IMG/VR virus record: IMGVR_UViG_2606217100_000004
Origin: a virus
Lineage: Duplodnaviria; Heunggongvirae; Uroviricota; Caudoviricetes
Length of the DNA stretch: 18,323 nucleotides
Strand: one strand, 5' to 3'
Below are positions 1 through 17,773 of this stretch, piece after piece. Each line of letters opens with the position of its first letter. Position 1 is the stretch's first letter. Below the pieces are notes generated by a model. That model searched no databases. It was not told the origin of the DNA and saw nothing but the letters and a program-made list of their open reading frames with translations. Made by a program: the position numbers and the translations under genes.

Positions 1-783
1 ATGAAGATCGTAAAGGCTGAAGTTTTTGTTACCTGTCCGGGGCGTAATTTCGTCACATTAAAAATCACCACTGAGGACGGTATTACGGGCCTTGGGGATG
101 CCACCCTCAATGGACGTGAGCTTTCCGTGGCCTCTTATTTGCAGGATCACCTTTGTCCGCAGCTTATTGGTCGCGATGCGCACCGTATCGAAGATATCTG
201 GCAGTTTTTCTATAAAGGTGCTTACTGGCGTCGCGGTCCGGTTACGATGTCGGCCATTTCAGCGGTTGATATGGCGCTGTGGGATATTAAAGCCAAAGCT
301 GCCAACATGCCGCTTTACCAGTTACTCGGCGGCGCGTCTCGTGAAGGGGTGATGGTTTATTGCCATACCACCGGTCACAGTATTGATGAAGCTCTGGATG
401 ATTATGCCCGTCATCAGGAGCTGGGATTCAAAGCCATCCGCGTGCAGTGCGGAATCCCTGGTATGAAAACCACCTACGGCATGTCGAAAGGTAAAGGTCT
501 GGCTTATGAACCCGCAACCAAAGGACAGTGGCCGGAAGAGCAGCTGTGGTCGACGGAGAAATACCTCGATTTCATGCCGAAATTGTTTGACGCGGTACGT
601 AACAAGTTTGGTTTTAATGAACATTTGCTGCATGACATGCACCATCGCTTAACGCCTATTGAAGCGGCGCGCTTTGGTAAAAGCATTGAAGATTATCGCA
701 TGTTCTGGATGGAAGACCCGACGCCTGCAGAAAACCAGGAATGCTTCCGTCTCATTCGCCAACATAGCGGAACTGTTTGCTGA
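1..783 (+). CDS. rspA: Starvation-sensing protein RspA (enolase-superfamily D-mannonate dehydratase family), 5' portion only; frame ends prematurely at a junction with prophage DNA
   Basis: ORF starts at nt 1 ([30 protein letters not shown]...), which I recognise as RspA. Full-length proteins of this family are about 400 aa; here the frame stops after 260 aa and the last residues (SGTVC) look junction-derived. Confidence 0.8.
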
Positions 784-3511: not shown

Positions 3512-3778
3512 TGTTAGGTATTTTAGACGTTACTAGATTAAAAAGCATTAGTTCAGGAGTGAATTGACATTCTCATTTTTCATGGCACAGGGTAGATCTG
3601 GCGTGGTTGTCCGCTTTGTGCCAGAGGCGGACGTTGTTAAAATAGAAAATATCCCAACCTTGTATGAGTCGTGCAATAATTTCGAACTTTATACAAAGCT
3701 TTGGTTGTAAAGGTGTATAACCACAAGTGACATTAATCACATTTGTAAAGGCAAAATGCAACAAACTGAATTAGTTAA

Positions 3779-3806
3779 TTGCGTAAATTTGAAGTTATGT
3801 TAAGGT
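3779..3806 (+). promoter_or_regulatory. Candidate retron promoter (-35 TTGCGT 3779-3784, 16-bp spacer, -10 TAAGGT 3801-3806)
   Basis: The hexamers place a transcription start at about 3813, coinciding with the first base of the a1 inverted repeat. Motif-level evidence only. Confidence 0.3.
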
Positions 3807-3812
3807 GGTGAT

Positions 3813-3945
3813 GGTTTATGGGCAGATTTTGGGTCGCGTTTCGCGATCAGTGAAAAAAATGTCCGATAGGATTGCCTTTCAGGATCTCATGTTCCTCGCA
3901 TTTCTTAAGGTTCTTGTCAAGTTTGCGTAAGAGTGCCCATAAACC
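3813..3945 (+). ncRNA. Candidate retron msr-msd (template for msDNA), bounded by a1/a2 inverted repeats
   Basis: Perfect 12-nt inverted repeat: GGTTTATGGGCA (3813-3824) and TGCCCATAAACC (3934-3945). A G follows a1 at 3825 (candidate branching G), and a2 ends 19 nt before the RT start codon. The 133-nt span is a plausible size for an msr-msd. Exact ends are not determined. Confidence 0.45.
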
Positions 3946-3964
3946 CTTTTAGAGGCGATCTAAA

Positions 3965-5800
3965 GTGAAACGACTACAATCATTAAAAGAAGCAAAAACA
4001 AAACCAGACTTGGCTAAGCTATTAGGAATCAAACCTTCAGCGTTAACATACTGCCTATATGTATTAAAACCTGAAAATCAATACACACAGTTTAAGATAC
4101 CAAAAAAAAATGGCGGCGAACGGATAATAAGTGCACCTAACGGAATATTAAAGACGATACAGTCATCCTTATCAGGACTGCTTCTAGATTGCTTAGACGA
4201 AATAGTTTGCATTAAGTTTCCAGACTCAGAGTTAGCAAGGCAGAAAGCAAAAAACTCAAAAATATTAAAGTTAAAATGTTCCAACTCAGAAATCAAACAA
4301 CCCTCACTGTCTCATGGATTTGAAAGAAAGCGTTCAATTATTACAAATGCAATGATGCATTTGGGGAAAAAATATGTTTTTAATATAGACTTGGATAATT
4401 TTTTCGGCAGTTTTAACTTTGGTAGAGTCCGAGGTTTTTTCATAAAAAATAGAAACTTTGCACTCGATCCGGAAATCGCAACTGTAATTGCTAAAATTGC
4501 GTGCTACAACAATGAACTACCCCAAGGCAGCCCATGCTCCCCAGTAATCACTAATCTAATCATTCACTCGTTAGACATTAAACTGGCAGCGATTGCATCA
4601 AGAAACTCATCCACTTTTACAAGATATGCTGATGATATTACATTCTCTACGAGGAAGGGGGCGTTTCCTTCTGCTATAGCAAAAAATCAAAATGGTAAAT
4701 ATATCGTTAGTAAGAAAATTAGGGGCGAGATAACTCGCTCAGGTTTTATAATTAATGATGGGAAGACAAGAAATCAGTATAAAGACTCGAGGCAAGATGT
4801 AACAGGCTTAGTGGTTAATAAAAAGCCAAACACGAAAAAAGAATATTGGAGGCTTGTGCGTGCGCAATGTGACCATTTATTTAAACATGGTGAGTTCTTA
4901 GAGGTGATTGACGGCAAGGAAATAAAGGGGAATGTTAATAGCCTTGCAGGCAAACTTAACTTCATAGACCAAGTTGACCACTATAATAGATTGCGTCAAG
5001 GCGAAAAATTAAATCCAAAATATCACTTAAAAAAAGATGCCAATAAAAATGGCCATGCCAAAAAAAGGCGTTACTTGCATAGTTCTAGAGAAAAAACGTT
5101 TAGTGAGTTTCTCTTCTATCGTTTATTTTATGGCAATGAATTACCAACAATTCTTACGGAAGGTAAAACTGACAATATTTATCTGAAGGCAGCAATACAT
5201 AAGTTAGCCTCATCATTCCCTAATTTGGCGGTAGCTGAAAGTCCAGGGCTCTCTTATAAGCCACGGACTAAATTTGTTAACTACAATGAGCGGACAAAAT
5301 ATTTACTTGAACTTTATGGTGGCGCTGATTATTTAAAGGATTTTGTTATTCATTATAAACAACACTTTAATCGTTATAAGGCTCCCAAACCATCTAATCC
5401 AGTAATTATACTTGTTGATAATGATAGCGGACCAAAAGATCTGATTAATTACGTTAGTAAAGTTGATAATATTGGTATTTTCCCCACAGGTGTTCCAGAT
5501 ATCCGCGCCTCTGAGTTTGTACATATTTTTTGTAATCTTTATTTAGTGCTTACCCCTCAAGTTAAGGGATATACAGGAACTGATATAGAGCATTTTTTTA
5601 AAGATGCAGATCGACTTAGACCACATAAAGGTAAGTTTTTCAATACAGTCTCTAAGCGTGATCATGATAATGATTTGAGCAAGGAATCTTTCGCAACTCA
5701 TATTGTTCATGCCCACAAGCATGAAATTGATTTTAGTGGATTTACAAGCCTGTTAGAACGGTTAGTAAAAGTCATAAATCACTTTGACACTGTTAAGTAA
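3965..5800 (+). CDS. Retron-type reverse transcriptase fused to a C-terminal TOPRIM-like domain (Retron-Eco2/Ec67-like)
   Basis: 611-aa ORF with a GTG start. RT motifs appear in order: NAMMH (NAxxH), NIDLDNFF, LPQGSPCSP, YADD (nt 4625-4636), VTGLVVN (VTG). The C-terminal part has TEGKTD (E codon 5159-5161) and VDNDSG (DxD), the TOPRIM E...DxD signature. The gene is strongly AT-rich compared with its flanks. Confidence 0.85.
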   Translation: MKRLQSLKEAKTKPDLAKLLGIKPSALTYCLYVLKPENQYTQFKIPKKNGGERIISAPNGILKTIQSSLSGLLLDCLDEIVCIKFPDSELARQKAKNSKILKLKCSNSEIKQPSLSHGFERKRSIITNAMMHLGKKYVFNIDLDNFFGSFNFGRVRGFFIKNRNFALDPEIATVIAKIACYNNELPQGSPCSPVITNLIIHSLDIKLAAIASRNSSTFTRYADDITFSTRKGAFPSAIAKNQNGKYIVSKKIRGEITRSGFIINDGKTRNQYKDSRQDVTGLVVNKKPNTKKEYWRLVRAQCDHLFKHGEFLEVIDGKEIKGNVNSLAGKLNFIDQVDHYNRLRQGEKLNPKYHLKKDANKNGHAKKRRYLHSSREKTFSEFLFYRLFYGNELPTILTEGKTDNIYLKAAIHKLASSFPNLAVAESPGLSYKPRTKFVNYNERTKYLLELYGGADYLKDFVIHYKQHFNRYKAPKPSNPVIILVDNDSGPKDLINYVSKVDNIGIFPTGVPDIRASEFVHIFCNLYLVLTPQVKGYTGTDIEHFFKDADRLRPHKGKFFNTVSKRDHDNDLSKESFATHIVHAHKHEIDFSGFTSLLERLVKVINHFDTVK

Positions 5801-6361
5801 TATTATGATGCGCACTGATTATTCCTTATTCAGCTAAAATTTCTACTGTAGTCCCAACTTCCGTTCCTCGCTCAAAGCGGACTAAAAGGTTAGCTTGTGT
5901 CGGACTTTGCGTATTAAAAGAAGTGCTGGTGGTGACTAGTGGTTGAGCCCCATTTCCACAGAAAAAATCAGAGAAACTATACCCAATAGTTGTATTGAAT
6001 CACTGACGAGACAGCCTCATATTCATCAGGACTGGTGTACGTCCAATACAGGAGGTTGTGGTGCTGGTTCTCAAATGTGCGCTGGCTATTACGGCTGTAA
6101 TGGCGATTTATTGTCTTGCTATTGTTCTTATGGATCGCCTTTCTGACTGATTTCATATTGGCGAGGTAACGGTAGTTAAGTAGAATGGCTGCGGGTGCTT
6201 GAGGCTATCTGCCTCGGGCATGAACACCAAAGGCAGATAGAGAAAAGCCCCAGTTAACATTACGCGTCCTGCAAGACGCTTAACATTAATCTGAGGCCAA
6301 TTTCATGCTAGACACATGTAGGTTAGCCTCTTACGTGCCGGAAGGCAAGGAGAAGCAGGCT

Positions 6362-6517
6362 ATGAAGCAGCAAAAGGCGATGTTAATCGCCCTGATCGTC
6401 ATCTGTTTAACCGTCATAGTGACGGCACTGGTAACGAGGAAAGACCTCTGCGAGGTACGAATCCGAACCGGCCAGACGGAGGTCGCTGTCTTCACAGCTT
6501 ACGAACCTGAGGAGTAA
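6362..6517 (+). CDS. hokD: Hok-family membrane toxin (HokD/RelF-like); in-frame upstream extension from 6305
   Basis: MKQQKAMLIALIVICLTVIVTALVTRKDLCEVRIRTGQTEVAVFTAYEPEE: a 51-aa single-TM Hok peptide with an AGGAGA SD upstream. A 3' fold-back hairpin and a terminator follow. Confidence 0.85.
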   Translation: MKQQKAMLIALIVICLTVIVTALVTRKDLCEVRIRTGQTEVAVFTAYEPEE

Positions 6518-8394: not shown

Positions 8395-9141
8395 ATGAAC
8401 CTTGAAGCCTTACCAAAATATTACTCCCCAAAATCTCCAAAATTGAGCGATGACGCTCCAGCGACAGGCACCGGTTGTTTAACAATTACGGATGTAATGG
8501 CAGCGCAGGGGATGGTGCAGTCGAAAGCACCACTTGGGTTGGCCTTATTTCTGGCAAAAGTTGGTGTTCAGGACGCTCAGTTTGCGATTGAAGGCCTGCT
8601 AAATTACGCGATGGCACTGGATAACCCGACATTGAACAAATTGAGTGAAGAAATCCGGTTACAGATTATTCCTTACCTCGTGAATTTTGCCTTTGCTGAT
8701 TACTCCAGGTCTGCGGCAAGTAAGGCTCGCTGTGAGCATTGTTCAGGTACGGGATTTTATAATGTATTGCGCGAAGTGGTGAAACACTACAGACGCGGGG
8801 AATCTGTAATCAAGGAAGAATGGGTGAAGGAACTATGTCAGCATTGCCATGGTAAGGGCGAAGTCAGCACAGCGTGCAGAGGGTGTAAGGGTAAAGGGAT
8901 TGTTCTGGATGAAAAAAGAACCCGGTTTCATGGCGTACCGGTATATAAGATTTGTGGGCGTTGTAATGGAAACCGGTTTAGTCGTTTACCGACCACGCTG
9001 GCACGACGTCATGTCCAGAAGCTGGTACCAGACCTGACCGATTATCAGTGGTATAGCCTGGTTTTTGGCCTGCTGACGTATCTGACAAATCTTTATTTCA
9101 AGATTAAAGAAGACAGGCGTAAGGCTGCGAGAGGAGAGTAA
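8395..9141 (+). CDS. quuQ: Late-gene antiterminator Q-like protein
   Basis: ATG at 8395 with a GGAGA SD. Cys-rich zinc-binding region (CEHCSGTGF...CQHCHGKGE...CRGCKGKG...CGRCNG), positioned immediately upstream of lysis genes. Confidence 0.7.
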
Positions 9142-9145
9142 TCCA

Positions 9146-9453
9146 ATGACTCAAGACTATGAACTGGTTGTGAAAGGAGTCCGTAATTTTGAGAATAAAG
9201 TTACGGTAACTGTAGCCTTACAGGACAAGGAACGCTTTGACGGTGAAATTTTTGACCTGGATGTCGCCATGGACCGTGTTGAAGGAGCTGCGCTGGAGTT
9301 TTATGAGGCAGCAGCCAGAAGGAGCGTCCGGCAAGTCTTCCTGGAAGTAGCAGAAAAATTGTCAGAAAAAGTTGAGTCTTATCTGCAGCATCAGTACTCC
9401 TTTAAGATTGAAAATCCTGCCAATAAGCACGAGCGTCCTCATCATAAATATAT

Positions 9454-9457
<4 letters not shown>
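9146..9457 (+). CDS. ydfR: YdfR-like (DUF1327) late-region protein
   Basis: 103-aa hydrophilic ORF between Q and the endolysin. It has no transmembrane segment, so it is not a holin. Confidence 0.6.
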
Positions 9458-10481
<1,024 letters not shown>

Positions 10482-10703
10482 GGTAATATTAAATCGGAAC
10501 ATTTACATCGCGGAATGTAAAATTTAAATAAAAAGGACTCTTCCATGAGCCAAAATTCCTGAAATCTTAAGGGTAAGATAAAAGGTCTTAATCAGAATGA
10601 CACGTTTTATTAATAAATAAAGCTATTCTTTCATTGCTGTGTTTTTCTTTACAAAAGTAATCCTTGCTATGGGTGGTTAATCATGCGTTAATGGTGTTCT
10701 GGT

Positions 10704-10740
10704 TTGTTACAAATTTATCTGAAGCAGTCATTGTTATAAT
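10704..10740 (+). promoter_or_regulatory. Candidate cspI promoter with extended -10 (TGtTATAAT at 10732-10740) and a roughly 100-nt AT-rich leader
   Basis: TGnTATAAT motif seen directly. A long AT-rich 5' UTR is typical of CspA-family cold-shock genes. Confidence 0.3.
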
Positions 10741-10843
10741 TTTATTATTTGTACCTCTTGAGATTTCCTTGTTGGTTTTTCTCTCTGATATTTTTTTTCG
10801 GACCATTCTGCCCAAGGGCTAATTTCTTCAAAAGGTAATAATT

Positions 10844-11056
10844 ATGTCTAACAAAATGACTGGTTTAGTGAAATGGTTTAACCCTGAAAAAGGTTTTGGT
10901 TTCATCACGCCGAAAGATGGCAGCAAAGATGTGTTTGTCCATTTCTCAGCAATTCAGAGCAACGATTTCAAAACATTAACTGAGAATCAGGAAGTTGAAT
11001 TTGGTATTGAGAACGGACCTAAAGGTCCTGCCGCTGTTCATGTAGTGGCGCTTTGA
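10844..11056 (+). CDS. cspI: CspA-family cold-shock protein
   Basis: 70 aa, [23 protein letters not shown]...VHFSAI: RNP1/RNP2 cold-shock domain motifs. Confidence 0.9.
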
Positions 11057-11260
11057 GGTAGACAATATTACAAACCATATTCACTTTAGATGCCCGTGTT
11101 GTCATGGTTCCCAGTATAGAACATCATCTTTTGATGTTTCTGACATGAATCCTTTCGGGGCAAAATGTATCTTTTGTAAATCAATGATGATTACATTTGA
11201 TAATATTTCACAATACTTAAATGCCAGCCGTCTGTCGTTGGATTTAAAAAAGTGAAAATG

Positions 11261-11283
11261 AAGGCTCCTTCGGGAGCTTTTTT
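11261..11283 (+). terminator. Intrinsic terminator
   Basis: Stem GCTCC/GGAGC with a TTCG loop, followed by TTTTTT. Confidence 0.5.
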
Positions 11284-11327
11284 GCTTGGTATCTATTCGA
11301 TGGATACTCACATACTACGGTAACATC

Positions 11328-11558
11328 ATGAAAAAAATCATAGTTTTTTTTAACTCTGAACCAGCAGTGGTAGTGCCAGCGATGACTGGAGTTAACACCA
11401 TCATGCGTGAATATCCAAATGGCGAAAAAACACACCTTACTGTAATGGCCGCAGGGTTTCCATCTCTGACCGGAGATCATAAAGTCATTTATGTAGCCGC
11501 GGATCGACATGTTACTTCAGAAGAAATTCTGGAAGCAGCAATAAGGCTCTTGAGTTGA
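11328..11558 (+). CDS. Hypothetical small protein
   Basis: ATG at 11328 preferred over the TTG at 11286, which lies inside the terminator tail. No clear SD and no recognised family. Confidence 0.35.
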   Translation: MKKIIVFFNSEPAVVVPAMTGVNTIMREYPNGEKTHLTVMAAGFPSLTGDHKVIYVAADRHVTSEEILEAAIRLLS

Positions 11559-11726
11559 TTTTATGCTATTGTATTGATAATTCAGGAAAATCCTCTTTGT
11601 CTGTTTGTGTAAAATTTAGACTATCGTATGTTGATTATTGCGATGTTTCATCTTATCTTTTACACGTTTGCACCATATAATCGACTTACTGTGTAACTGG
11701 AAAGTCATAACAGACTAAAAGAGGAA

Positions 11727-11903
11727 ATGATGAATATTGAAAACTTAAAAACAAAAGCAGAAGCAGATATTTCTGAATATATAACAAAAAAAATTATTGA
11801 ACTTAAGAAAAAGACCGGGAAAGAAGTTACCAGTATTCAGTTTACCGCACGGGAAAAAATGACGGGTCTTGAAAGCTATGATGTCAAGATTAATTTAATC
11901 TGA
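11727..11903 (+). CDS. gnsB: GnsA/GnsB-family small protein
   Basis: 58-aa ORF not in the supplied track (MMNIENLKTKAEADISEYITKKIIELKKKTGKEVTSIQFTAREKMTGLESYDVKINLI) with an AGAGGA SD. Confidence 0.65.
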   Translation: MMNIENLKTKAEADISEYITKKIIELKKKTGKEVTSIQFTAREKMTGLESYDVKINLI

Positions 11904-11930
11904 TGTATTCAATAATAAAATTTATCCATA

Positions 11931-11958
11931 AACCTCGTTTTTACGGGGTTTTGTTATA
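11931..11958 (+). terminator. Candidate intrinsic terminator after gnsB
   Basis: Stem AACCTCG/CGGGGTT around a TTTTTA loop, followed by a T-rich tract. Confidence 0.4.
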
Positions 11959-12017
11959 TTTGAATGGTTCCGAATATCTAAATCACAATTGTTGATGGTT
12001 TTTATTAAACCAATGCA

Positions 12018-12046
12018 GTCCGGCTCAGGAGTGAGAGAAGCCGGAC
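12018..12046 (-). terminator. Candidate hairpin terminator downstream of ydfO
   Basis: 8-bp stem GTCCGGCT/AGCCGGAC, 9 nt past the ydfO stop; the U-tract on the minus strand is weak. Confidence 0.3.
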
Positions 12047-12054
12047 GTTATGGT

Positions 12055-12465
12055 TTAGCGTGGTAAGATCTGTGTAGTTTTCTGGATGCTTTCAGTAAAT
12101 AGTAATGAGTTATCAAAGGCATAGTAATATCTTTGGTGTTCCTGGATATTTGTAACCCATCGGAAAACTCCTGCTTTAGCAAGATTTTCCCTGTATTGTT
12201 GAAATGTGATTTCTTTTGATTTCAACTTATTATAGGAGGTCTCTATAAGATGTTTGTTTCTGGAGAATTTAACATTTACAACCTTTTTGAGTCCTTTTAC
12301 TAACACTATGTTGTCGTTTTCTAACACAATGTGAATATTATCTGTGGCTAAATAGTAAATATAAAGTGAGACATTGTGACGTTTTAGCTCAGAATAAAAT
12401 AATTCACAGTTTAAATCTTTACGCACTTGATCGAATATTTCTTTAAAAATGGCAGCCTGAGCCAT
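12055..12465 (-). CDS. ydfO: DUF1398-family prophage protein (YdfO-like)
   Basis: Start chosen at the internal Met ([17 protein letters not shown]...). [13 protein letters not shown] and [30 protein letters not shown] resemble YdfO as I recall it. Confidence 0.7.
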
Positions 12466-12765
12466 TGGTAAACCTTCCATGTGATACGATGGCGCGTAGT
12501 TAGCATTATCGTGTTTATTGTTTCAATCTGGTCTGACCTCTTTGTGTTTTGTTGATGATTTATGTCAAATATTAAGCCTGTTTTTGATGAATAGTGTTGA
12601 TTGCGTAACAAAATTGAGCCTTGCTGGCATCCAGGAGGGATATGCAACCGACAGATGTATGTAAGGTCGATGTACTCAAACTTTCATACTTTTCCTCTTT
12701 TATGCAGTAAGATTTGAAGTAATATTTTAACCGCTAGATGACGAGCAAACGCATGGAGCGACAAA

Positions 12766-12972
12766 ATGAATAAAGAACAATCTGCTGATGAACTCTCGTT
12801 GGATCTGATTCGTGTAAAAAATATGCTTAATAGCACCATTTCTATGAGTTACCCGGATGTTGTAATTGCATGTATAGAACATCAGGTGTCTCTGGAAGCA
12901 TTCAGGGCAATTGAGGCAGCGTTGGTGAAGCACGATAAGAATTCGAAGGATTATTCCCTGGTGGTTGACTGA
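12766..12972 (+). CDS. Hypothetical small protein
   Basis: 68-aa ORF with a GGAGCG SD 6 nt upstream, divergent from ydfO. Confidence 0.45.
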
Positions 12973-13296
12973 GCACCATAACTGCTAATCATTCAAACTA
13001 TTTCACCTGTGACAGAGTCAATATCGCATTCTGTCACTGTCAGGCTAATACAGAGCTGCAATTCAACTACTGCAATGTCCTCGTAATTAGGTGAATTTAC
13101 AATATCGTCCTGTTCGGATGCCGGTTGCATTGCTGAAGATGAGGCATTTATGGTTCGCATATTTTCCCCTCATGCTCGTCAGTCCTGTGCGTAGGAAGAA
13201 ACAGGACACTCACACTAATTTGTGTGGGCATGCTGTGATGTCCTTCTGAATTATTCCTATGCCATTATGTAAAGCGCTGTATCAGATGCTCATCAC

Positions 13297-13320
13297 GGCT
13301 GTCAGGCTGTCAGGCTGTCG
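13297..13320. repeat. Three tandem copies of an 8-mer (GGCTGTCA x2, GGCTGTCG) leading into a GC-rich tract
   Basis: Read directly from the sequence. Confidence 0.5.
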
Positions 13321-13542
13321 GGTCCTCCCGGTGGGGGCCCCTGCCACGGGGCGGGAGCGTCGCGGAAAAAGGCTAGTTTTTGCATTTCCATGGCGGCGGC
13401 AGCATGTTTGGTAATTTATTGATAATTAAAAGTTATTTCTCTTTTTACCTGTACAATATTTTTTTCTCCCTGTCATTAGACCAGTTTACAATTAATTGAA
13501 ATATATAAATAAACATGATTTTCACCTGCCAGATGGAGTTGC

Positions 13543-14221
13543 TTATGTCAAATGTGAGCGGGATCGGTGATGCTTATTACGACCACCTGCACGTACCCAG
13601 TCTGATTCTGTCGCCGCTCCACCACGAATCTGAATTTTCCAGGCCTCAGCCTCCTTAACAGGGTCAATCCACGGCATCACCGGTCCGGAATACACCGCGG
13701 TATACAGTGAAGAACGATCAAGATCGCGGGGTAGCCTGATAACACCGGATGCCACAGCCTGTTTCAGCCAGGCACGATACATCGGGCGGGTGACGGCACC
13801 AATAAACCAGTCCTGCAGGATCAGGTAGCCATCAGTGGATTCAACCAGCTCCTGACGCTGGGCGCTGTAAGTGCCGTTATAGTTGCGTGCCGTACTGGAA
13901 AAACTCAGACGACTGCCCGCCGCCACGGCACGCAACTGACCATTACGAAAAGTTTCAAGGTTAGGATTGGGACGATCCGACTTCACCATTCCGATTTCTT
14001 CGCCGGGTTTCAGATCGTCGTAAATAATGCCTGGCTGAATGGTAAGCTCGCGTTCATTCTCCTTGCTGCCATTACCATCCGGTTCATAGCTCTGCCCGTC
14101 GCCTTTCCGGATGTACATCCCCAGAGCAGCGGCGATCCTTGCTGCAGTCAGCTCAGAATCTTCATACTCTTTCAGGGCACTGAGGCGGATCAGCACACCG
14201 GACAACAAAGACGTCCCGCGC
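13543..14221 (-). pseudogene. Lambda-family portal protein (gpB-like) internal/C-terminal fragment
   Basis: The minus-strand frame (…RAVAAGSRLSFSSTARNYNGTYS…WLKQAVASGVIRLP…PWIDPVKEAEAW…) resembles the C-terminal part of lambda gpB as I recall it. The first 38 codons of the track ORF are an out-of-frame read of the V fragment. Confidence 0.45.
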
Positions 14222-14908
14222 ATCTGGTGCAAGGGCGATGCGTTTGCGAACCCTTTATCGGACACTGACTGGCTGCGTCTTGCGATGGTGAAGGATCTGC
14301 AACCTGGCGAAATGACCGCTGATGCAGAAGATGACACTTATCTCGATGATGAAGATGCAGACTGGAAAACGACAACCCAGGGGCAGAAATCCGTCGGTGA
14401 TACTTCGGCGACGCTGGCCTGGCGTCCGGGTGACAGCGGGCAGAAAAAACTGGTTCAGTTGTTCGACTCCGGTGAAGTCTGCGCGTTTCGTATCAAATAT
14501 CCCAACGGCACTGTTGATGTTTTCCGTGGCTGGCTGAGCTCACTGGGTAAAACCATTGCCTCAAAAGACGTGATGACCCGCACAGTGAAAATCAGCGGTG
14601 TGGGGCGTCCGTATCTGGCAGAGGAAGGCACTGAAACAGTGAGCGTTACCGGGCTGACGGTGGCACCGGCATCTGCCAGTGTAAAAGTGGGAGCAACCAC
14701 CACGCTGACCTTTACAGTAAAACCTGACGGAGCCAGTGACAAAGCGATCAGTGTGCATTCGACAGATCCACAGACTGCCACGGTGACCCTGAACGGGCTT
14801 GTGGCCACGGTGAAAGGCGTGAAGCAGGGCAGTGTCAGCATTGTGGGCATGACTTCTGACGGCGATTTTGTGGCAGTGGCTGCGGTGGCTGTCAGCGCCG
14901 CAGGTTAA
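14222..14908 (+). pseudogene. Lambda gpV-like major tail protein, N-terminally truncated
   Basis: ANPLSDTDWLRLAMVKDLQPGEMTA…YLDDEDADW…PNGTVDVFRGW…Ig-like C-terminus closely matches lambda V from about residue 20 onward. No V-like start codon or N-terminus is present. Confidence 0.75.
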
Positions 14909-14910
14909 CA

Positions 14911-15667
14911 GGACGATACTCATCATTTGCCCCGGTTAGTGCCGCTTCCTCGGCAACGGCGGCAGGCAATTCCGCGAAGGCGGCAAAGACGTCTGAGACA
15001 AACGCCAGGTCTTCTGAAACGGCAGCGGAACAGAGTGCCTCAGCTGCGGCAGGCTCAAAAACAGCGGCTGCGTCGTCTGCCAGTGCAGCGTCAACAAGTG
15101 CCGGGCAGGCCTCAGCCAGTGCTAGCGCCGCCGGAAAATCGGCAGAAAGCGCCGCATCGTCCGCTTCAACAGCCACAACGAAGGCTGGCGAAGCCACTGA
15201 ACAGGCCAGCGCAGCAGCGAGGTCTGCTTCCGCAGCGAAGACATCCGAAACGAACGCGAAAGCGTCGGAAACCAACGCAGAATCCTCAAAAACGGCTGCC
15301 GCATCGTCCGCCAGTTCGGCGGCGTCATCGGCATCATCGGCGTCTGCTTCAAAAGATGAGGCGACCAGACAGGCGTCAGCAGCGAGGGGCAGCGCCACGA
15401 CGGCATCCACGAAGGCGACAGAGGCTGCTGGCAGTGCGGCAGCGGCAGCACAGAGCAAAAGTACGGCAGAATCCGCAGCAACGCGCGCTGAGACAGCGGC
15501 AAAACGGGCAGAGGATATTGCATCCGCCGTGGCGCTTGAGGATGCGAGCACGACGAAAAAGGGGATAGTACAGCTCAGCAGTGCGACTAACAGCACTTCC
15601 GAGTCACTGGCGGCAACGCCAAAAGCCGTTAAGGCCGCGTATGACCTGGCTATACGAGGTGTATAAC
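14911..15667 (+). pseudogene. Side tail fibre (Stf) Ala/Ser-rich segment, no start codon, open from the V stop, ending in a frameshift
   Basis: A frame without ATG reads …KTSETNA…SASAAS…[34 protein letters not shown], then stops at 15665-15667. The tail-fibre sequence continues in another frame. Confidence 0.55.
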
Positions 15668-16510
15668 AACGGATATCCAACAGCGTATGGAAATATCATT
15701 CACCTGAAAGGGATGACAGCCGTTGGCGAAGGTGAGTTACTCATCGGCTGGAGTGGTACAAGCGGTGCTCATGCTCCGGCATTTATTCGTTCACGACGGG
15801 ATACGACCGGCGCAAACTGGTCGCCGTGGGCGCAGCTTTACACCTCGGCTCATCCTCCTGCAGAGTTTTATCCAGTCGGTGCACCAATCCCGTGGCCATC
15901 AGATACCGTTCCGTCTGGTTATGCCCTGATGCAGGGGCAGACTTTTGACAAATCTGCTTACCCGAAACTTGCAGCCGCTTATCCGTCAGGCGTGATCCCT
16001 GATATGCGTGGCTGGACGATTAAGGGCAAGCCCGCCAGTGATCGAGCCGTATTGTCTCAGGAACAGGACGGCATTAAATCACACACCCACAGCGCCAGCG
16101 TATCCAGTACGGATTTGGGGACGAAAACCACATCGTCGTTTGATTACGGCACTAAATCCACGAATAACACTGGTGCGCATACCCATAGTGTTAGCGGTAC
16201 GGCTGCTTCAGCCGGTGCACATACCCATTCGATGACATTTGTTTCAGGTGGTTCCAGTGGTGCTCCGGGAAGTGGATCACCTGATTATTCTAAATACAGT
16301 GTTAACACTTCTTCTGCAGGCGCTCATACGCACTCTGTATCGGGTACTGCTGCAAGCGCAGGTGCACACGCACATACTGTCGGTATTGGTGCTCATACGC
16401 ACTCCGTTGCGATTGGTTCACATGGACATACCATCACCGTTAACGCTGCTGGTAACGCGGAAAACACCGTCAAAAACATCGCATTTAACTATATTGTGAG
16501 GCTTGCATAA
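15581..16510 (+). CDS. stfQ: Side tail fibre C-terminal portion (StfQ-like); true start uncertain
   Basis: Contains PIPWPSD…[10 protein letters not shown]…repeated GAHTHS/GAHAHT…[31 protein letters not shown], a typical lambdoid tail-fibre distal domain. The first roughly 20 codons of the track ORF are probably out-of-frame junk. Confidence 0.65.
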
Positions 16511-17085
16511 TGGCATTCAGAATGAGTGAACAACCACGGACCATAAAAATTTATAATCTGCTGGCCGGAACTAATGAATTTATTGGTGAAGGTGACGCAT
16601 ATATTCCGCCTCATACAGGTCTGCCAGCAAACAGTATCGATATTGCACCGCCAGATATTCCGGCAGGCTTCGTGGCTGTTTTCAACAGTGATGAGGCATC
16701 GTGGCATCTCGTTGAAGATCATCGGGGTAAAACGGTTTATGACGTGGCTTCCGGCGACGCGTTATTTATTTCTGAACTCGGTCCGTTACCGGAAAATGTT
16801 ACCTGGTTATCGCCGGGAGGGGAATATCAGAAGTGGAACGGCACAGCCTGGGTGAAGGATACGGAAGCAGAAAAACTGTTCCGGATCCGGGAGGCGGAAG
16901 AAACAAAAAACAGCCTGATGCAGGTAGCCAGTGAGCATATTGCGCCGCTTCAGGATGCTGCAGATCTGGAAATTGCAACGGAGGAAGAAATCTCGTTGCT
17001 GGAAGCATGGAAAAAGTATCGGGTATTGCTGAACCGTGTTGATACGTCAACTGCACAGGATATTGAATGGCCAGCACTGCCGTAG
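16510..17085 (+). CDS. tfaQ: Tail fibre assembly protein (Tfa)
   Basis: 191 aa; ATG overlaps the stf stop (ATAATGG), and the product resembles Tfa chaperones (…[14 protein letters not shown]…EWPALP). Confidence 0.8.
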
Positions 17086-17182: not shown

Positions 17183-17773
17183 TTATATGTCAGGTGTCTG
17201 AAGTTTTGCTTTGGCTCTTAAAATGGTTTGCCGCGAGGTTTTGAATTCCCGGGCAATGGCACTTATACTTACACCTGACTTAATTCGTTCGAATACCACC
17301 TGTTTCTGTTCTTCATTTAACACTGGTGGTCGACCAAAACGTTTCCCTGCGCCCCGGGCTCTTACTATCCCGGAATGAGTGCGTTCAAGTAAAAGGTCTC
17401 GTTCAAATTCAGCGACTGCTGAAATTACTTGCATCATCATTTTTCCTGTTGGACTGGTCAGGTCAATGCCCCCCAATGCTAAGCAATGCACTCTGATACC
17501 TGTTTCGGTCAGTTGTTCCACTGTTTTCCTGATATCCATTGCATTACAACCAAGGCGATCCAGTTTTGTCACAATCAATTGATCACCACATTTCAGGCGA
17601 GCAAGCAACCGGTTAAAACCAGGACGCTCACTGGTTGCTGCTGAGCCGCTAATGTGTTCTTCGATTATTTGCTGAGGTTTGATTTTAAAACCTGCACTTT
17701 CGATTTCCCGGCGTTGATTTTCGGTGGTCTGATCCAGCGTTGATATCCGACAGTAAGCAAAAATTCGAGACAT
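17183..17773 (-). CDS. pinQ: Serine recombinase / DNA invertase (Pin/Gin/Hin family)
   Basis: 196 aa: [15 protein letters not shown] (catalytic Ser motif), resolvase core, and a C-terminal HTH ([17 protein letters not shown]). Confidence 0.9.

Follow-up and report, generated by a model that had tools for sequence, protein, structure and literature searches.

It is clear that the portal and tail tube gene fragments lying head to head in the window (the whole 18,323-base stretch of DNA that was analysed) meet at a junction that is real but is private to one clone, a scar of an ordinary kind. Very probably this scar is a non-functional rearrangement of a Qin-type cryptic prophage, which would have arisen from an ancestral inversion of approximately 4.2 kb followed by deletions. 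Neither an invertase crossover core nor a mobile element lies at the breakpoints, and illegitimate, microhomology-mediated recombination is the best description of the events. The first-pass annotation had seen a mark of prophage decay in the arrangement, and this description is upheld in the form of an ordinary deletion-and-inversion scar.

All 18,323 bases of the window match positions 53657-71979 of contig JNQW01000020.1, from a draft E. coli assembly (GCA_000704365.1), with 100% identity, and the edges of the window are the ATG of rspA at the start and the start codon of ydfK at the end. It can be assigned to a Qin-type cryptic lambdoid prophage of E. coli, integrated between rspA/rspB and ydfJ/ydfK, given the rspA and ydfK flanks, the presence of tfaQ and pinQ, and the co-linear, intact relative that strain ATCC 25922 carries at this site. 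In the RefSeq annotation of near-identical DNA from closed genomes, the genes between rspA and ydfK comprise a Cro/CI pair, a YdaT-family protein, a retron Ec67-family reverse transcriptase, hokD, rem, ydfU, ydfT, essD, ydfR, rrrQ, rzpQ, cspI, gnsB, a DUF1398 protein, tfaQ and pinQ. The rspAB / ydfJ-ydfK site, the Qin late-region gene set and the stf-tfaQ-pinQ series are thus all represented, but the dicBF-ydfD-intQ left arm is not, as it has been deleted with rspA nt 766 joined straight to the repressor region. In K-12, dicBF is housed in the Qin cryptic prophage (PMC10448788, PMC6832061).

The site is common to the window prophage and to Qin of K-12, bounded by rspA at one end and by tfaQ-pinQ-ydfK at the other, and the gene sets are alike in hokD/sok, rem, ydfU, ydfT, essD, ydfR, rrrQ, rzpQ, cspI, gnsB, an stf fragment, tfaQ and pinQ. 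Like Qin, the window prophage is a defective lambdoid element from which the head and tail genes are gone. The genes listed for the K-12 prophage also include dicBF, relBE, hokD, cspB/F/I, rrrQ and stfQ-tfaQ-pinQ. Unlike Qin, the window is missing int, xis, exo, dicB and half of rspA, which a private deletion removed, carries the retron Ec67-family reverse transcriptase, and keeps part of the portal gene and an almost complete V gene head to head, where the K-12 prophage presumably keeps nohA (a Nu1 homologue) beside stfQ instead. The window prophage is decayed further than the K-12 copy, and differently.

On the minus strand, an open reading frame of 264 aa in the list of open reading frames (13543-14337) holds an inverted internal fragment of a lambda-family portal gene at 13576..14231, corresponding to portal nt 1353 down to 698, that is, to approximately aa 233-451 of 502. 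This reading frame matches the Pfam profile PF05136 (Phage_portal_2) with 117.5 bits, well above the curated cut-off of 32.9 bits, over profile positions 204-354 of 354, and the fragment has 99% aa identity to the portal encoded by the ATCC 25922 prophage (aa 233-451 of 502). The alignment with lambda gpB covers aa 244-474 at 23% identity (E = 1e-9). The minus-strand fragment is portal-derived, as had been proposed when it was called gpB-like, although at 23% identity the likeness to gpB is only distant. The piece is truncated at both ends, lacking the N-terminal 232 aa and the C-terminal 51 aa, and what is left of a complete, ring-forming portal of approximately 500 aa is aa 233-451 of 502 alone. 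At the nucleotide level, it is 100% identical to the inverted portal of strain SW071614 over the 648 bp that they have in common, and 98% identical to co-linear portals; the counterpart piece in SW071614 is flagged as a pseudogene in RefSeq. A phage or plasmid source for the portal piece was considered and rejected, given that a phage search returned ordinary portal and V homologues and no phage with the portal'-V' junction.

The plus-strand open reading frame of 265 aa (14111-14908, from the same list) overlaps the 264-aa frame by 227 nt and contains the gene of the major tail tube protein (gpV family) from nt 65 to the stop codon (14229..14908), which encodes aa 23-247 of 247. It matches PF16461 (lambda tail tube protein) with 215.4 bits over profile positions 2-135 of 135 (cut-off 26.1 bits), and the C-terminal Ig-like Big_2 domain (PF02368) is kept with 43.9 bits, so that the tube domain and the Ig-like domain of a gpV-type protein are both present. 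Over aa 23-247, the fragment matches the V homologue (247 aa) of ATCC 25922 and GPEC87-32-644 with 100% identity, and the 55% identity to lambda gpV (aa 24-246) bears out its earlier description as gpV-like. The deletion took the U-V junction upstream of the gene as well as its first 64 nt (22 codons), and the fragment has no intact N-terminus with its own start and translation signals. The first-pass annotation was therefore right that both fragments lack their N-terminal parts, but it overlooked the missing C-terminus of the portal and how little of V is gone.

The DNA 3' of V continues on the plus strand (14909..14938) up to the loop of the V terminator hairpin, as placed by base-level comparison, and is joined at 14938/14939 to the side tail fibre gene (CCCCGGTTA/GTGCC in the window versus CCCCGGTTATCCGGGGCTTTTTT in ATCC 25922). 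GPEC87-32-644 is the sole other carrier of this V-stf junction among complete E. coli genomes. The deletion from V to stf cuts exactly within the loop of the hairpin, and the terminator is thereby destroyed. The side tail fibre (stfQ-like) sequence that follows (14939..16510, plus strand) is a pseudogene, N-terminally truncated and frameshifted, which is recognized by its Collar and Phage_fiber Pfam matches and is also backed by the RefSeq annotation of the 100%-identical stretch of GPEC87-32-644. It is followed by tfaQ (16510-17085) and then by pinQ (17183-17773, minus strand).

The breakpoints were measured at base level against the ATCC 25922 locus (L003). Co-linear prophage DNA, in which window 9054-13580 corresponds to L003 26249-30774, ends 36 nt into terS, the gene of the small terminase (DUF1441, Nu1-like; L003 30739-31266), and the terS remnant at 13545..13580 on the plus strand, with the first 12 codons (MSNVSGIGDAYY), is the last co-linear prophage DNA ahead of the inverted piece. 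The left inversion junction (GGTGATGCTTATTACGACCACCTGCACG) lies in a 5-bp microhomology, ATTAC (13576..13580), that belongs to the terS side and to the inverted portal side alike. This junction occurs in one of the 5,426 complete E. coli genomes, that of SW071614, and its 28-mer had no match in JGI metagenome contigs or in GTDB representative genomes.

At the other end of the inverted piece, the portal on the minus strand abuts V on the plus strand, in the head-to-head arrangement that had been described. The meeting point had been put at approximately 14222; a junction is indeed there, but base-level comparison places it at 14229..14231, in a 3-bp microhomology, GCA. The homology extends imperfectly, with GCAGACGGCGA in the portal parent versus GCA-AGGGCGA in the V parent, and BLAST stretched it to 10 bp solely by opening a gap. 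The trinucleotide is found at both parental breakpoints and a single copy is left in the window, as in microhomology-mediated (RecA-independent, illegitimate) bacterial deletions, in which one copy of a short direct repeat present in both parents is retained. A homology of 3 bp is at the short end of those typically reported for such deletions. No IS element, att site or long repeat was found at the portal'-V' junction, and no transposase open reading frame adjoins it.

An apparently intact lambdoid prophage occupies the same chromosomal site in ATCC 25922 (NZ_CP009072, 3.478-3.517 Mb). Its genes are co-oriented, from terS, terL, W, portal (502 aa), a protease/capsid fusion and head completion genes to Z, U, V (247 aa), G, T, H, M, L, K, I and J. 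The co-linear parts of this prophage and the window have 99.8-100% nucleotide identity, and the portal and V genes are represented in both; of the full terS-to-J series in ATCC 25922, the window has 36 nt of terS, 656 nt of the portal (inverted) and V from nt 65. Given that portal and V are co-oriented in ATCC 25922, with the breakpoints approximately 4.5 kb apart, and lie head to head in the window, an inversion and deletions are required, as the first-pass annotation had argued, and two related strains keep other pieces of this inverted segment.

In SW071614, the sequence to the left of the junction is 99.9-100% identical to the window, and the terS-inverted portal junction is present in both. 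The inverted segment of this strain passes the start of the portal gene, crosses the W-like gene and enters terL (L003 34935->32551, approximately 2.4 kb), and then jumps into the tail fibre gene. GPEC87-32-644 and the window have in common the V-stf junction and the host flank, with 100% identity over the 4,095 bp from window 14229 to the end and over the 3.6 kb of upstream host flank, for which ATCC 25922 gives 98.0%. In GPEC87-32-644, a 311-bp inverted piece of terL (L003 32072->31762) is followed by co-linear capsid genes through V. Both strains have later deletions and an IS3 insertion of their own, and neither has the portal'-V' junction. The insertions of the IS3 family lie in ydfR in SW071614 (L001 9659-10872) and in the capsid gene in GPEC87-32-644 (L002 11846-13074); together with the deletions, they amount to at least seven independent lesions in one prophage of one clone. 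A look-up with the retron reverse transcriptase returned many Qin-type loci, all of which were in the normal orientation or were SW071614 itself.

In all three related strains, the inverted terL-portal pieces differ by 1.3-2% from their co-linear counterparts in ATCC 25922 (L003) and CUVM53 (L012), whereas the flanking late region and V are 99.8-100% identical to those copies. This suggests that the ancestor had a mosaic head module. Its head region may have been a somewhat different mosaic, or possibly came from elsewhere.

Three steps very probably account for the present arrangement. In an ancestor of the clone, approximately 4.2 kb (L003 30775-34935) would have been inverted by illegitimate recombination, over a span that begins at terS codon 13, takes in terL and the W-like gene and ends at portal codon 451, with ATTAC at the surviving left junction. 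A deletion would then have joined the terminator loop of V to a point midway along the tail fibre gene, with removal of G-T-H-M-L-K-I-J. In the window lineage only, a further deletion of approximately 7.4 kb between two GCA trinucleotides, of which the junction is observed, would have removed the 5' part of the inverted portal, W, terL, terS' and the portal 3' stub, and with them all head genes, Z, U and the first 64 nt of V. Of this loss, approximately 3.5 kb would be inverted segment and approximately 3.9 kb the stretch that begins with the portal 3' stub and ends at V nt 64, and it would have left the portal and V fragments 5'-end to 5'-end. None of the arrangements of the window, SW071614 and GPEC87-32-644 is derivable from another, and all three can be reached by simple deletions from a single ancestor with terS'-portal' inverted and V already joined to stf. 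It is likely that the inversion took place in the common ancestor and that each lineage then lost different parts. The predicted reciprocal junction of the inversion (...GATTTTAAAAACACTCCA/CCGGATGATGTCAAACGTCG) is found in none of the 5,426 complete E. coli genomes, among which no genome with the complete inversion was found either, and for this reason the order of inversion first and deletions later rests on parsimony.

The lack of a fully inverted genome would also be expected if a single template switch of the FoSTeS/MMBIR type, in the window lineage and with no prior inversion, had deleted terS to V and copied in the 656-bp inverted portal, and the mere 3-5 bp of microhomology at both junctions is typical of such events. 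This origin is nonetheless quite improbable, given that the left junction of SW071614 is exactly the same, that its 100%-identical inverted portal continues for 2.4 kb into W and terL, and that GPEC87-32-644, from the same clone, holds another inverted piece of terL; independent switches hitting the same base are very unlikely. The proximity of pinQ, 3 kb away, brings up inversion by this neighbouring serine invertase at secondary (quasi) crossover sites, which invertases of the Cin and Gin families can use at low frequency. The invertase crossover core (AAACC-NN-GGTTT) is absent at both breakpoints, the 10 matches to it in the window with two mismatches or fewer compare with 11 expected by chance and none falls at 13576 or 14230, and the parental sequences have ATTAC alone in common, all of which makes the participation of PinQ extremely unlikely. 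For the stepwise rearrangement, it may be asked whether the decay was more than neutral. The at least seven private deletions or IS insertions in three strains, on top of the common terminase-portal inversion, are the basis for reading the locus as unusually unstable or under active selection, which we regard as unlikely. If true, the inversion may put the packaging genes head-on to late transcription and favour their loss or, alternatively, selection may shed virion genes and keep the retron, lysis and cold-shock modules.

The existence of the junction itself is documented in several assemblies. An artefact, in the form of a chimeric join made during library preparation or assembly and absent from the chromosome, would be in keeping with the absence of the portal'-V' junction from all 5,426 complete E. 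coli genomes and with the lack of matches to its 25-mer in JGI metagenome contigs and GTDB representative genomes. This 25-mer is, on the other hand, present in the submitter's NCBI contig JNQW01000020.1 and in the Logan assemblies of two different SRA runs, SRR1186649 and SRR1186487, and these three assemblies (L017, L018, L019), retrieved by means of the private ydfT-essD fusion protein encoded 5 kb upstream of the junction, are 100% identical to the window over 10-18 kb. Given that an identical junction appears in two independent assemblies of separate sequencing runs, that the two sides have just 3 bp in common, which leaves a k-mer graph assembler nothing to misjoin, and that closed genomes confirm the region's other junctions, a one-off assembly artefact appears very unlikely, and the junction is known from assemblies. 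A literature search on the accession and run numbers returned nothing. The other question raised by the junction is whether it has created a new expressed gene with a function for the host, either V with a novel N-terminus of 40 aa and an intact Ig-like domain or a portal-derived protein. The 265- and 264-aa frames do traverse the junction, as the first-pass annotation had pointed out, and the V part is 100% conserved. The plus strand has 46 stop-free codons upstream through the junction (39 when counted from the ATG at 14111) and the minus strand has 35, and as many are found upstream of 25-28% of all position/frame pairs in the window; the open frames are at chance level and carry no meaning. 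No site resembling a sigma-70 promoter was found in 13000-15200, and none of the candidate starts (ATG at 14111, 14223 and 14285; the GVG-class GTG at 14337) is preceded by a Shine-Dalgarno sequence. Gene callers start within the homologous parts, giving 220-226 aa for portal' and 207 aa for V' from the ATG at 14285, and no called gene on record gives the exact through-junction products (265 and 264 aa); the callers use shorter starts. The perfect identity of the V part is what would be expected of a recent deletion and is no evidence of selection. For these reasons, a new gene is highly improbable. Nothing in the sequence indicates that either chimeric frame is expressed, and neither fragment would make a working protein.

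The importance of the junction lies in annotation and goes little beyond it: both open reading frames should be annotated as pseudogene fragments belonging to a single decayed Qin-type prophage, and not as genes. The breakpoints and the three related arrangements offer a small, clean example of a lambdoid prophage whittled by an inversion and then by independent microhomology deletions, and the private junctions could serve as clone-specific markers.

Other lesions were observed in the window prophage. At window 1-783, the remnant of rspA is truncated at nt 766, with a TA microhomology (765-766), and joined to the prophage repressor region; compared with ATCC 25922, this junction deletes the rest of rspA, rspB, the integrase, excisionase and exonuclease genes, ydfD, dicB, ydfB and ydfA. 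As read from these losses, the host gene rspA is destroyed and the prophage should no longer be able to excise. Both the NCBI contig and the SRR1186649 Logan assembly contain the junction between rspA and the repressor region, which occurs in none of the 5,426 complete E. coli genomes. At window 8395-9141, a private deletion of 1.87 kb (junction 9054/9055) takes out cspF, cspB and ynfU and fuses ydfT, which encodes a Q-type antiterminator, to the final part of the holin gene essD; the putative fusion product of 248 aa has Antiterm and Phage_holin_2_1 Pfam matches.

The retron Ec67-family reverse transcriptase/endonuclease of 611 aa is encoded at window 3965-5800 on the plus strand, with an upstream region at 3632-3965 in which no Rfam match was found at the gathering threshold. 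A DUF4209 gene occupies the same position in ATCC 25922, on the opposite strand, and this position looks like a slot for swapped defence cargo in the prophage. The Rfam matches above the gathering score are the sok antitoxin RNA by hokD (6193-6367), a cspA-type thermoregulator leader before cspI (10698-11083) and the IS009 RNA within tfaQ (16853-17051).
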